DNA of 5,196 nucleotides, from NCBI RefSeq assembly GCF_003334335.1, contig NZ_QOWQ01000077.1; one strand, written 5' to 3'. Origin of the DNA: Escherichia coli (lineage in GTDB: Bacteria; Pseudomonadota; Gammaproteobacteria; Enterobacterales; Enterobacteriaceae). The notes under the pieces are model-generated. The model saw only the letters and a list, made by a program, of their open reading frames with translations, was not told the origin of the DNA and did no database searches. Below are positions 1,542 through 5,196 of the stretch, piece by piece (within the stretch, counting starts at the first letter, position 1; each line of letters begins with the position of its first letter). Both the position numbers and the translations under genes were made by a program.

Positions 1542-1820
1542 GTGAAAAAATGTGTGCCAGTCCTGCTTTTTAGTGTTCTTTCTGCTTCGGTTGCCAGTCA
1601 TGCGGACAGCAATGTTTTTCAACAAAAGGCCGAGAAGACAAAAAACGGCATTGTTGCGGATGTTAATGCCAGACAGAAAATGTTCAGTAACAGACTGAAG
1701 ATACAACTTCAGATCGATGAGTTGAGAGCAGAGCTGGCTGGCACCAGAGATGCCCAAAAAAGAGAGGATTTGCGTAAAAAACTGGAGTCTCTGGAGCGGC
1801 AAAAGAAATCCTTACGCTGA
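1542..1820 (+). CDS. Hypothetical secreted or periplasmic small protein (92 aa), charged and probably helical
   Basis: GTG start with AGGA about 7 nt upstream. Signal peptide MKKCVPVLLFSVLSASVASHA with an AxA-like cleavage site (SHA|D). The mature ~71 aa are K/E/R/Q-rich with heptad-like spacing (QLQIDELRAELAGTRDAQKREDLRKKLESLERQKK). Divergently arranged with the lipoprotein gene across a 115-bp intergenic region. Confidence 0.5.
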   Translation: MKKCVPVLLFSVLSASVASHADSNVFQQKAEKTKNGIVADVNARQKMFSNRLKIQLQIDELRAELAGTRDAQKREDLRKKLESLERQKKSLR

Positions 1821-2129
1821 TGGGGGCGTATTTTCCCCGGTTTCTTCCATAACCTTTTTACCGTTCAGATATTTACGGGCGAGGCGAATGCGTCTTGCCT
1901 GGTATACCGCCGAGTAAGCCTGGGTGGGATTCACACCATTACTGATTTCACTGACCACATGACGCTGATCTGCCAGTGTCAGCGTGTAAACCTGTTTCTG
2001 GATGAGGTCACGGGCTTTGTCATGCTCATATCCGGCAGCAACAAGGGTGTCGAGAAGTCGTTTGTCTGTTTTGTTCAGTTTATGGCGGGGTGATTTGCTC
2101 ACATCGTTCTCCGTTTTTTCATGATCCAA
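1812..2129 (-). CDS. Hypothetical basic protein (105 aa), putative DNA-binding (HTH-like)
   Basis: ORF convergent with the 1542..1820 gene (9-bp overlap) and divergent from the colicin promoter. The segment DKRLLDTLVAAGYEHDKARDLIQ looks like a helix-turn-helix. An alternative start is GTG at 2102, preceded by GGAG. No family recognised. Confidence 0.45.
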   Translation of the reverse strand: MDHEKTENDVSKSPRHKLNKTDKRLLDTLVAAGYEHDKARDLIQKQVYTLTLADQRHVVSEISNGVNPTQAYSAVYQARRIRLARKYLNGKKVMEETGENTPPSA

Positions 2130-2199: not shown

Positions 2200-2216
2200 T
2201 GTGATCCTTATTGCAA
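2200..2216. promoter_or_regulatory. Possible CRP-binding half-site upstream of the colicin promoter
   Basis: tgtgatccttattgcaa has TGTGA, a 6-nt spacer, then TTGCA (3/5 match to TCACA), centred about 60 nt upstream of the predicted transcription start. Colicin E1 expression is known to be catabolite-sensitive. The match is weak. Confidence 0.25.
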
Positions 2217-2234
2217 AAATGAAAATCCATGCTC

Positions 2235-2263
2235 TTGACATGGACAATGCTGAATAGTAGGTT
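2235..2263 (+). promoter_or_regulatory. Colicin operon promoter
   Basis: Perfect -35 TTGACA at 2235..2240, a 17-bp spacer, and a -10-like TAGGTT at 2258..2263, immediately upstream of the LexA boxes. Confidence 0.55.
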
Positions 2264-2267
2264 TTTG

Positions 2268-2298
2268 CTGTACATAAAACCAGTGGTTATATGTACAG
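2268..2298. promoter_or_regulatory. Tandem overlapping LexA (SOS) boxes
   Basis: CTGTACATAAAACCAG (2268..2283) overlaps a second box read on the bottom strand, CTGTACATATAACCAC (2283..2298). This dual-box arrangement is characteristic of colicin promoters and nearly identical to the recalled colicin E1 operator. Confidence 0.85.
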
Positions 2299-2346
2299 TA
2301 TGTTGTTTTTAATTTATTGTTTTAATTATCAAAGAGGAATTTCTTT

Positions 2347-3819
2347 ATGGATAAAGTCACTGATAATTCTCCAGATGTGGAGAGCACAGAATCTACTGAG
2401 GGGTCATTCCCAACTGTTGGGGTTGATACTGGCGATACGATTACAGCGACGCTTGCAACTGGAACTGAAAATGTTGGTGGAGGCGGTGGAGCATTTGGTG
2501 GGGCCAGTGAAAGTTCTGCTGCGATACATGCAACCGCTAAATGGTCTACCGCGCAGTTGAAAAAACATCAGGCTGAACAGGCTGCCCGTGCTGCTGCGGC
2601 TGAGGCAGCATTGGCAAAAGCGAAATCTCAGCGTGATGCCCTGACTCAACGTCTCAAGGATATTGTTAATGACGCTTTACGTGCTAATGCCGCTCGTAGT
2701 CCATCAGTAACTGACCTTGCTCATGCCAATAATATGGCAATGCAGGCAGAGGCTGAGCGTTTGCGCCTTGCGAAGGCAGAGCAAAAAGCCCGTGAAGAAG
2801 CTGAAGCAGCAGAAAAAGCGCTCCGGGAAGCAGAACGCCAACGTGATGAGATTGCCCGCCAACAGGCTGAAACCGCGCATTTGTTAGCAATGGCGGAGGC
2901 AGCAGAGGCTGAGAAAAATCGACAGGATTCTCTTGATGAAGAGCATCGGGCTGTGGAAGTGGCAGAGAAGAAGCTGGCTGAGGCTAAAGCTGAACTGGCG
3001 AAGGCCGAAAGCGATGTACAGAGTAAGCAAGCGATTGTTTCCAGAGTTGCAGGGGAGCTTGAAAACGCTCAAAAAAGTGTTGATGTGAAGGTTACTGGAT
3101 TTCCTGGATGGCGTGATGTTCAGAAAAAACTGGAGAGACAATTGCAGGATAAGAAGAATGAATATTCGTCAGTGACGAATGCTCTTAATTCTGCGGTTAG
3201 CATTAGAGATGCTAAAAAAACAGATGTTCAGAATGCTGAGATAAAATTAAAAGAAGCTAAGGATGCTCTTGAGAAGAGTCAGGTAAAAGACTCTGTTGAT
3301 ACTATGGTTGGGTTTTATCAATATATAACCGAACAATATGGGGAAAAATATTCCAGAATAGCTCAGGATTTAGCTGAAAAGGCGAAGGGTAGTAAATTTA
3401 GTAGTGTTGATGAAGCTCTTGCTGCATTTGAAAAGTATAAAAATGTACTGGATAAGAAAATCAGTAAGGTTGATCGGGATGCTATTTTTAATGCGTTAGA
3501 GTCTGTTAATTATGATGAGTTATCTAAGAATTTAACGAAGATATCAAAGTCGCTTAAAATCACTAGTCGAGTATCTTTTCTATATGATGTTGGTTCTGAT
3601 TTTAAAAATGCAATAGAAACTGGTAACTGGCGACCTTTGTTTGTCACGCTGGAGAAAAGTGCGGTCGATGTAGGTGTGGCAAAAATTGTGGCATTAATGT
3701 TTAGTTTTATTGTTGGTGTGCCTCTTGGTTTCTGGGGGATTGCAATTGTCACAGGTATTGTTTCTTCTTACATAGGGGATGATGAGTTGAACAAACTTAA
3801 TGAGTTGTTAGGGATTTAA
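2347..3819 (+). CDS. cta: Pore-forming colicin, colicin E1 family (490 aa); best recalled match is colicin 10
   Basis: AGAGGA lies 9 nt upstream of the ATG. Residues ~55-130 ([29 protein letters not shown]...[16 protein letters not shown]...[31 protein letters not shown]) and the C-terminal channel domain (YGEKYS...[28 protein letters not shown]...LKIT..VSF.YDV.SD...TG.W.PLF.TLEK.A.D.GV...VAL.FS...[15 protein letters not shown]....LN..NE.LGI) closely parallel the recalled colicin E1 sequence. The N-terminal ~50 aa and the central region differ. The 490-aa length, the 96-aa immunity protein and the 43-aa lysis protein fit my recollection of colicin 10, but colicin 5 or a close relative cannot be excluded without a search. 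Confidence 0.85.
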
Positions 3820-4106
3820 TTTCTCTTTAGAGTGTAATATATGAAACTTGGCAATCCTACTGGGATTGCCATTAATAAATAAAACAATGCAGATAACTTG
3901 CATAAGTACCAGGGTTCTTTTTTTAACTTTGTATTTTCTTTGATATATCTAGATATGGTTAATTTAGAGTATGGATATAGCAATACATGTATTGATGATA
4001 TAAATATAAATAACAAAGGAGTGTTATCATTGTCGTTAAATATTAAAATAAGAATCCATGGTATAAGTGATTCAGGTAAATTATGTAGGTAGTATTTTAA
4101 ATGCAT
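3816..4106 (-). CDS. cti: Pore-forming colicin immunity protein, E1 type (96 aa, integral membrane)
   Basis: Convergent with the colicin gene; the two stop codons overlap at 3816..3819. The protein is very hydrophobic and AT-rich in codon usage, with about three predicted transmembrane segments. Motifs [15 protein letters not shown] and [14 protein letters not shown] resemble the recalled colicin E1 immunity protein (...CPYSKYAIEHIF..., ...LAIPFGLLGLVY...). Confidence 0.8.
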
Positions 4107-4135: not shown

Positions 4136-4267
4136 ATGAAAATAATAATTTTTCTAATTACAATATTATTCTTGTCAGGATGTCAAGCAAACTATATTCG
4201 TGATGTGCAAGGAGGAACCGTTGCACCATCTTCGTCTTCTGAACTGACGGGGATCGCGGTTCAGTAG
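4136..4267 (+). CDS. ctl: Colicin lysis (release) lipoprotein, 43 aa
   Basis: Not in the supplied ORF track (too short). Hand translation gives [43 protein letters not shown], with GGAAAG 5-10 nt upstream of the ATG. Signal peptide plus LSGC lipobox and a short mature peptide are typical of colicin lysis proteins. It sits downstream of the immunity gene on the colicin strand, as kil does in ColE1. Confidence 0.8.
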
Positions 4268-4321: not shown

Positions 4322-4429
4322 TGTAAACGAAAAAACCGCCTGGGGAGGCGGTTTAGTCGAAGGTTAAGTCAGTTGGGGACTGCTTAACCGGGTAACTGGC
4401 TTTAGTGGAGCACAGATACCAAATGCTGT
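4322..4429 (-). ncRNA. RNA I antisense copy-number control RNA (about 108 nt)
   Basis: The 5-prime end ACAGCAUUUGGUAUCUGUGCUCC... is the complement of 4429 downward and is homologous to the pMB1 RNA I start ACAGUAUUUGGUAUCUGCGCUCUG. The 3-prime end is the hairpin plus U-run complementary to aaaaaaccgcctggggaggcggttt at 4327..4351. Confidence 0.75.
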
Positions 4430-5091: not shown

Positions 5092-5196
5092 TTATCTCTC
5101 TGTGCTATTTTCTACTTCAAAGCGTGTCTGGATGCTGTTCTGGAGTTCTTCTGCGAGTTCGTGCAGCTTCTCACACATGGTAGCCTGTTCGTCAGC
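5092..5196 (-). CDS. rom: Rom/Rop, 3-prime portion (stop at 5092..5094); continues as feature 1..167 across the circular junction
   Basis: Same reading frame as feature 1..167; reverse-complement translation ends ...QTRFEVENSTER*. Positions 5120..5196 duplicate 1..77. Confidence 0.85.
   Translation of the reverse strand, partial: ADEQATMCEKLHELAEELQNSIQTRFEVENSTER
5120..5196. repeat. Terminal 77-bp exact duplicate of window positions 1..77 (circular-plasmid linearisation overlap, not a biological repeat)
   Basis: aagcgtgtctggatgctgttctggagttcttctgcgagttcgtgcagcttctcacacatggtagcctgttcgtcagc occurs at 1..77 and 5120..5196. Implied unit length is 5,119 bp. Confidence 0.9.

Follow-up and report, generated by a model that had tools for sequence, protein, structure and literature searches.

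The window analysed here (the whole stretch of DNA, 5196 nt) represents a circular plasmid of approximately 5119 bp that is overrun past its start; positions 1-76 are repeated at 5121-5196. The plasmid is a ColE1-type replicon with 99.9% identity to the Escherichia coli plasmid pEcoUTI1a (NZ_CP049851.1). A search with Rfam gave no match in the promoter and leader described below, and located only RNAI, in the origin (4327-4427, minus strand). The open reading frame at 2347..3819 on the plus strand (490 aa) is an exact match to the UniProt entry CE05_ECOLX, 'Colicin-5', and is the structural gene cfa. The immunity gene (3816..4106, minus strand, 96 aa) is an exact match to IMMK_ECOLX, the colicin K immunity protein, and its counterpart in NZ_CP049851.1 is annotated as cki; the gene at 4136..4267 on the plus strand (43 aa) encodes the colicin release (lysis) lipoprotein, according to its annotation and a sequence match. 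Since the reading frame 2347-3819 encodes Colicin-5 and is accompanied by the immunity and lysis genes, the segment 2200-2298 belongs to the promoter region of this colicin 5 operon; it is the colicin 5 promoter-operator, and it precedes first the colicin gene and then that for lysis, the immunity gene being encoded on the other strand.

The 5' untranslated leader (2299..2346, plus strand) contains the block TTATTGTTTTAA and the Shine-Dalgarno sequence GAGG at 2334-2337. In the alignment this block is kept across the promoters of pore-former colicins, pesticin and nuclease colicins. On the other side of the promoter, a divergent gene for a 96-aa four-helix protein is annotated at 1812..2102 on the minus strand; its likely start is the GTG at 2102, which is preceded by GGAG, and the 105-aa reading frame described earlier at this place is the longer version, 1812-2129, that reaches the TTG at 2129. 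This exact promoter type occurs on plasmids of 87 among 5426 complete E. coli genomes, the plasmid being of a common kind, and colicin promoters with dual LexA boxes are textbook knowledge.

Core promoter and LexA operator

The − 35 hexamer, TTGACA (2235..2240, plus strand), is read directly from the sequence as the consensus, and after a 17-bp spacer it is followed by the − 10 hexamer TAGGTT (2258..2263), which is weak, with 3/6 matches to TATAAT. From this geometry the transcription start would be 6-8 nt past the − 10 region, at 2269..2271. Neither hexamer has a variable column (0/6 each) among 20 distinct promoter sequences of the colicin K/5/10 group, to which the window belongs; the invariance of TTGACA in all the promoters collected in this work follows from its use as the alignment anchor. 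A generic sigma-70 promoter scan of the region 1800-2500 called nothing on either strand; with a − 10 region of only 3/6 the cfa promoter is missed by such a scan, which is therefore uninformative for either strand.

Upstream of the − 35 region there is an A-tract, AAAAATGAAAAT (2215..2226, plus strand, approximately − 55 to − 44), that resembles an UP element and includes the last base of the CRP-like core described below. Its AAAAA run is invariant in the four promoter groups compared in this work, including the nuclease-colicin promoters that carry no CRP-like site, and the A-tract is the only upstream feature common to all four. We infer for it a role as an UP-like element, and it is more likely that the A-tract, rather than the CRP-like element, is the upstream part that matters. 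The palindrome CCATG-N7-CATGG (2227..2243), read from the sequence and also flagged by a terminator-like scan, spans the − 35 hexamer; speculatively, the spacing of its CC...GG is compatible with the IscR type-2 motif.

The operator is formed by two LexA boxes on the plus strand: box 1, CTGTACATAAAACCAG, with the pattern CTG-N10-CAG (2268..2283; 20-mer 2266-2285), and box 2, GTGGTTATATGTACAG, with the pattern GTG-N10-CAG (2283..2298; 20-mer 2281-2300). The boxes overlap by one base, the shared G at 2283, and jointly form a 15-nt inverted repeat; box 1 has a single mismatch to CTGT-N8-ACAG. It begins 4 nt past TAGGTT, and the operator covers the inferred start, which falls inside box 1. Using a heterology-index matrix derived from 27 chromosomal SOS boxes, boxes 1 and 2 are the best and second best sites of the plasmid, with indices of 6.6 and 8.5, values that real boxes also take (1.4-10.4); the site that ranks third in the plasmid has an index of 14.6, and in 200 random sequences of matching composition no site was as good as 8.5. 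Within the 20 distinct K/5/10 sequences only 2 of 31 columns of the boxes are variable. The pair also fits the pattern common to 137 colicin and pesticin promoters, and a scan of viral contigs with the dual-box pattern gave 0 matches.

The consensus operator of colicin genes consists of two SOS boxes that overlap, the distal one being nearer to the consensus (PMC11332147), and the near-identical cka promoter has been shown to be DNA-damage-inducible and LexA-repressed in vivo (PMC2655658, PMC4482635). On sequence grounds, the region is a member of the class of SOS-regulated colicin promoters with dual overlapping LexA boxes. The original prediction, a colicin promoter in which tandem overlapping LexA boxes follow a consensus − 35 and a weak − 10, was thus correct in each of its elements, the downstream gene being that of colicin 5, and the matrix scores for LexA that it proposed to obtain agree with it.

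A CRP-like element at a fixed position in bacteriocin promoters

The element that was proposed as a CRP site, TGTGATCCTTATTGCA, has the form TGTGA-N6-TTGCA (2200..2215, plus strand). Its left half is the consensus and its right half retains 3 of 5 positions, that is, 8/10 positions of the core match. Its centre (2207.5) is placed at approximately − 62; as the start may be anywhere from 6 to 8 nt past the − 10 region, the centre would be found at − 61.5 to − 63.5, the canonical class I position and the correct face of the helix, in good accordance with the distance of about 60 nt originally given. On inspection by eye, an FNR reading (TTGAT-N4-ATCAA) was discarded, as the right half of the element matches it at only 2/5.

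The bare consensus TGTGA-N6-TCACA is matched with up to 2 mismatches five times in the window, against 2.4 expected, and at least five matches occurred in 25 of 200 shuffles; as this count is at chance level, a weight matrix and homology were used instead. The matrix was built from 19 classical CRP sites, with the ColE1 sites excluded. The outcome of the two scorings is mixed: with the matrix the element is the top match of the plasmid, with 12.1 bits using the plasmid's own background and 13.2 bits using a uniform one, above the leave-one-out medians of the 19 true sites (11.0 and 11.7 bits), and approximately 0.27 matches as good are expected per random 5.1 kb; the bare consensus did not set the element apart.

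Homology with other bacteriocin promoters starts at this same point. When the intergenic region was compared with plasmids using blastn, similarity to the promoters of colicins E1, B and R, klebicin and pesticin started at 2198-2202, exactly the left edge of the CRP-like element, which places the element at the edge of a mobile promoter module. In an alignment of 15 annotated bacteriocin promoters, TGTGATCCTTATTGCA falls, ungapped to the − 35 region, on TTTGATCGTTTTCACA of ColE1 and on AGTGATTCAGATCACA of pesticin. The comparison was extended with 120 metagenomic loci that carry the dual LexA boxes, and 137 promoters were anchored on TTGACA, the core beginning 35 nt upstream of the − 35 region. 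At this fixed offset, the ColE1-like promoters (n=65) carry TTTGA-N6-TCACA with 14.5-15.4 bits, and the pesticin-like promoters (n=3) carry GTGA-N6-TCACA with 15-16 bits. The colicin K/5/10 promoters (n=30) carry TGTGATCCTTATTGCA or close variants of it, with 10.3-14.1 bits, and in the nuclease colicin promoters (n=39) nothing CRP-like is present at this offset (− 3 to − 11 bits). The geometry of the window and that of ColE1 are identical (core, 19 nt, − 35, 17-bp spacer); the element of the window scores 13.2 bits, that of ColE1 15.0 and that of pesticin 15-16, and within the K/5/10 group variants go down to 10.3.

Control of colicin E1 by CRP has been known since the 1980s. The ColE1 element is the proximal site ('site 61') of the entry 'ce1cg' of the classical CRP training set, which lists sites 17 and 61; the 105-nt sequence of this entry matches a real ColE1 plasmid exactly, with the cores at 20 and 64. 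Published work describes a stimulation of ColE1 cea by CRP-cAMP, which binds on the upstream side of the SOS operator, and a comparable site at the same location in colicin N (PMC2994835); expression of pesticin in Yersinia pestis is likewise reported to be CRP-dependent (PMC2738681, PMC3521224). Given that it occupies the same position as the known ColE1 and pesticin CRP sites, the element of the window is neither a product of chance nor a new idea. The proposal of a CRP site as in colicin E1 therefore stands as far as positional homology is concerned, and an actual dependence on cAMP-CRP is doubtful in view of the loss in the right half and the variable half-sites, as described in the following section.

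A probable inherited CRP site in decay and the alternative readings

The probable ancestral state of the element is GTGA-N6-TCACA. From it, the promoter-proximal half has changed from TCACA to TTGCA (TAGCA in some relatives), so that position 16 no longer has its C and position 17 no longer its A. Position 16 belongs to a G:C pair that is contacted by CRP in the CRP-DNA complex.

Variation within the promoter groups was examined in groups set by the spacer and the − 35-proximal sequence and not by the CRP-like element itself. Among 15 distinct E1-like promoters, no column of the half-sites is variable (0/10), and of the 28 columns next to them 12 are (one-sided Fisher test, p=0.011), which has the signature of constraint on the E1-like half-sites. 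For 8 distinct K/5/10 promoters, a shallow group in which the test has low power, the half-sites show 2 variable columns out of 10 versus 3 out of 28 in the flank (p=0.9), the variants being CGTGA for TGTGA and TAGCA for TTGCA. With 20 distinct K/5/10 sequences, 4 of the 22 columns of the CRP-like 22-mer are variable, versus 5 of 97 in the upstream region. The variable-column test hence gives no support for purifying selection on the K/5/10 half-sites, in a group that is only a few percent divergent and where, for this reason, such a test has little statistical power.

The reading that we favour, with a probability of about 0.7, is that of a colicin 5 SOS promoter-operator with an inherited, partly decayed class I CRP site, a promoter that would be largely CRP-independent. 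We think that in the K/5/10 promoters the element is at most a weak CRP site; in the window it most likely persists as a decaying remnant that has little effect or none. According to this reading, sigma-70 RNA polymerase would use the perfect − 35 together with a deliberately weak − 10, and two LexA dimers would occupy the overlapping SOS boxes that lie 4 nt past the − 10 region; placed over the transcription start, LexA would keep the promoter shut until DNA damage brings about its self-cleavage. This LexA mechanism is established for the promoter family, and for the window it is predicted from the sequence. The CRP-like element would have been inherited as the class I site (approximately − 62) of an ancestral promoter module shared by pore-former colicins and pesticin; this site works in colicin E1 and pesticin, and the proximal half of the K/5/10 promoters, having lost two positions including the critical C:G pair, would be drifting.

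The alternative that survives best is a class I CRP site that still works, at approximately − 61.5, so that colicin 5 requires carbon limitation in addition to the SOS response, as colicin E1 does. In that case cAMP-CRP would recruit RNA polymerase via the alpha C-terminal domain and so offset the weak − 10 region, a feature that in itself suggests the need for an activator. The perfect TGTGA half at a canonical class I position speaks for such a site, as do its rank as the plasmid's top match (12-13 bits, against a median of 11-12 for true sites), the exact positional homology to the sites of ColE1 and pesticin, both reported to be CRP-dependent, and the fact that the homology across colicins starts exactly at the element. 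In addition, CGTGATGTTGCTTGCA, a real CRP site of the malK region, shares the TTGCA right half. Against it stand the absence of C and A at positions 16 and 17, the natural variants CGTGA and TAGCA in half-sites that are not depleted of variation, and the lack of a distal site: ColE1 has a second, distal CRP site, and neither the alignment nor the CRP matrix revealed one in the colicin 5 promoter. Moreover, the colicin K promoter has the identical 16-mer, TGTGATCCTTATTGCA, and its induction was reported in 1999 to be independent of cAMP-CRP and insensitive to the carbon source, unlike that of catabolite-repressed colicin E1; that work reportedly used multicopy fusions and dealt with colicin K and not with colicin 5. 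Among the papers searched for this analysis, none states that colicin K is CRP-independent. Altogether, we regard a working site as unlikely, and it is the score typical of a real site together with the canonical class I position that leaves a small but appreciable chance of some remaining CRP dependence.

A second alternative would have the element or its surrounding DNA control the divergent 96-aa gene, or form part of an operator for IscR, IHF or the 96-aa protein itself. The element is approximately 105 nt upstream of the start of this gene, in the 244-bp intergenic region that the two transcription units share, and a homologue of the 96-aa gene is found divergently upstream of all the K/5/10-type (30/30) and pesticin-type (2/2) promoters and of none of the E1-type (0/62) or nuclease-type (0/30) promoters; the linkage is therefore 32/32 for this promoter type against 0/92 for the others. 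The 96-aa protein is 76% identical to the product of the reading frame located divergently beside pesticin on pPCP1. Linkage of the gene to the promoter across two unrelated toxins could equally represent the common descent of one inherited block of DNA. A further reading seems to us improbable, in which the gene and the promoter, including the CRP-like element, move as a unit between unrelated bacteriocins (the pore-forming colicins K, 5 and 10 and the muramidase pesticin), and either the protein would be an unrecognised small regulator of bacteriocin expression or the decayed site would have been kept for the sake of the divergent gene.

The protein had been described as HTH-like, which is not supported: it matched no Pfam family (best E=0.16, to an unrelated family) and no NCBIfam family, and had no relative among the sequences of the PDB, and fold searches returned no significant relative of known character. 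The only family matched was an unannotated PHROG, and the protein family is tiny, with 19 representatives among 1.84 billion proteins. The predicted structure of the 96-aa protein is a confident model of four helices (mean pLDDT 82); the fold searches with it gave weak matches only, a few of them to sigma factors, and the only significant relatives were uncharacterised small proteins of Vibrio and Aliivibrio. A protein with no recognisable DNA-binding domain argues against an operator of its own in this region, as does, for a promoter of the divergent gene, the lack of a sigma-70-like minus-strand promoter in the scan, which also missed the cfa promoter.

Regarding IscR, it binds the cka promoter region, where it delays induction and acts as co-repressor with LexA (PMC4482635). 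The IscR type-2 motif, AxxxCCxxAxxxxxxxTAxGGxxxT (PMC4169559), has a match with 2 mismatches that overlaps 2181-2205, and the CC...GG palindrome spans the − 35 region; nevertheless, such matches number 13 in the plasmid, and if up to 3 mismatches are allowed there are 111, and the motif is consequently too degenerate to place a site. We consider this whole set of other roles quite improbable. Finally, that the element resembles a CRP site purely by chance, with no evolutionary or functional meaning, is extremely improbable and already largely refuted, judging from the sequences, by positional homology: matches to the consensus with 2 mismatches are indeed common, as noted above, yet across all the pore-former and pesticin promoters assembled here the element lines up ungapped, at one distance from the − 35 region, with the sites of ColE1 and pesticin, its counterpart position in the nuclease colicins scores negatively, and the expectation of 0.27 matches per 5.1 kb becomes far smaller at one fixed position.

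Comparison with known colicin and pesticin promoters

Among the promoters related to that of colicin 5, the closest is that of colicin K (cka, of pColK-K235 and its relatives), with approximately 97% identity across the intergenic region; it shares with the window the CRP-like 16-mer, the − 35 and − 10 regions, the divergent 96-aa gene and the immunity protein. The LexA boxes of both promoters are one base apart, in box 2 (ATATATACAG versus ATATGTACAG). The differences are the structural gene, which in the window is that of colicin 5 (490 aa), and a few point changes in the spacer and just upstream of box 1. By analogy, the regulation described for cka, namely co-repression by LexA and IscR (PMC4482635), should carry over to the colicin 5 promoter; other inputs of cka are ppGpp and nutrient depletion (PMC4675545).

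The promoter of colicin E1 (cea) has the same layout as the window, i.e. the 16-mer, 19 nt, TTGACA, 17 nt, the − 10 region and dual overlapping SOS boxes. In contrast with the window, which has TTGCA and no distal site, it carries TTTGA-N6-TCACA with a perfect proximal half, and in addition the distal site TGTGGCATCGGGCGAG. The half-sites of the 15 distinct E1-like promoters are invariant whereas those of the K/5/10 group vary, and the upstream neighbour of cea is exc1 instead of the 96-aa gene. From the CRP-like element onwards, the pesticin gene of Y. pestis pPCP1 (pst) has its promoter module in common with the window, and it also has the divergent 96-aa gene (76% identity); it differs in having a near-perfect CRP site, AGTGATTCAGATCACA, of 15-16 bits, and in its toxin, which is a muramidase and not a pore-former. 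The nuclease colicins (E2-E9 type) have in common with the window the − 35, a similar weak − 10, the dual LexA boxes, the leader and the A-tract; in contrast, the place that corresponds to the element holds nothing CRP-like (− 3 to − 11 bits), and these colicins are co-repressed by AsnC rather than IscR (PMC4482635).

The comparative value of the locus is modest. It adds one more state to a single module in which the position of the CRP site is fixed, and where the site is under constraint in E1, near-perfect in pesticin and, in our reading, decaying in K/5/10. The strict linkage of the 96-aa gene across unrelated toxins is the one point that is mildly intriguing. The promoter could also be of use as a test system, given that repair of TTGCA to TCACA should turn a CRP-independent colicin promoter into a CRP-dependent one. 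In general terms, the observations fit the published picture in which the colicins have rewired their nutritional input, E1 responding through CRP, K through IscR and ppGpp, and the nuclease colicins through AsnC.

The gene divergent from the colicin promoter

Upstream of the colicin 5 promoter, and transcribed divergently from it, lies a gene on the minus strand (window 1812-2102) whose product is a 96-aa protein predicted from a structure model to form four helices. In the promoters collected, this gene was divergently upstream in all 30 of the colicin K/5/10 type and in both of the pesticin type, whereas the 92 promoters of the ColE1 and nuclease types all lacked it at that place; in pPCP1, the Yersinia pestis plasmid that carries pesticin, the homologue occupies positions 1117-1422 of the plasmid sequence (L004), also on the minus strand. 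The protein family is tiny, with 19 representatives among 1.84 billion proteins, and the fold has relatives only among small, uncharacterised proteins of Vibrio and Aliivibrio.

An exact 10-nt direct repeat, TGATTTGCTC, is found near this gene, with starts 57 nt apart; one copy (2091-2100) is placed just within the start of the gene, and the other (2148-2157) is intergenic and conserved in part in pPCP1. The repeat could have arisen by chance (roughly p = 0.03 for that region), or it could serve the divergent 96-aa gene as part of its promoter or as an operator. At its 3' end the 96-aa gene overlaps by 9 nt (1812-1820) the 3' end of a 92-aa ORF on the plus strand (1542-1820), annotated as hypothetical. 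The N-terminus of the 92-aa product, MKKCVPVLLFSVLSASVASHA, is signal-peptide-like, the rest is charged and coiled-coil-like, and it gave no family match.

Conserved elements of the promoter and the leader

The A-tract AAAAATGAAAAT (window 2215-2226) precedes the inferred transcription start by approximately 44-55 nt and resembles an UP element. The AAAAA within it is the only upstream block that is invariant across the ColE1-like, pesticin-like, colicin K/5/10 and nuclease colicin promoter groups, and this invariance extends to the groups without the CRP-like site. Across the -35 hexamer lies the palindrome CCATG-N7-CATGG (2227-2243), which may have a connection with the IscR operator described for colicin K; the pore-former promoters retain CC...GG at the same spacing, and visual comparison suggests that it is absent from the nuclease-colicin promoters. 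Downstream, the 5' leader (2299-2346) carries the block TTATTGTTTTAA ... AAAGAGG, common to pore-former, pesticin and nuclease bacteriocin promoters. Conservation of this block is greater than a ribosome-binding site alone requires, and Rfam contained no family matching it.

Colicin genes and plasmid form

The product of window 2347-3819 (plus strand) is exactly colicin 5, but that of 3816-4106 (minus strand) matches the immunity protein of colicin K exactly; the two genes overlap tail-to-tail by 4 nt. Cross-immunity between colicins 5 and K is known, and this pairing is consistent with it.

Positions 1-76 are identical to 5121-5196, which indicates a circular plasmid of ~5119 bp read past its origin; rop is missing from the ORF list because it spans the circular junction. 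A complete mobilisation region (MbeB, MobC, relaxase) is present in close relatives of 6.8 kb, whereas the 5.1-kb plasmid retains only a small MobA/MobC-like gene (427-774), and its first ~940 nt (1-942) do not align with these relatives. The 5.1-kb plasmid appears to have arisen by deletion or rearrangement.
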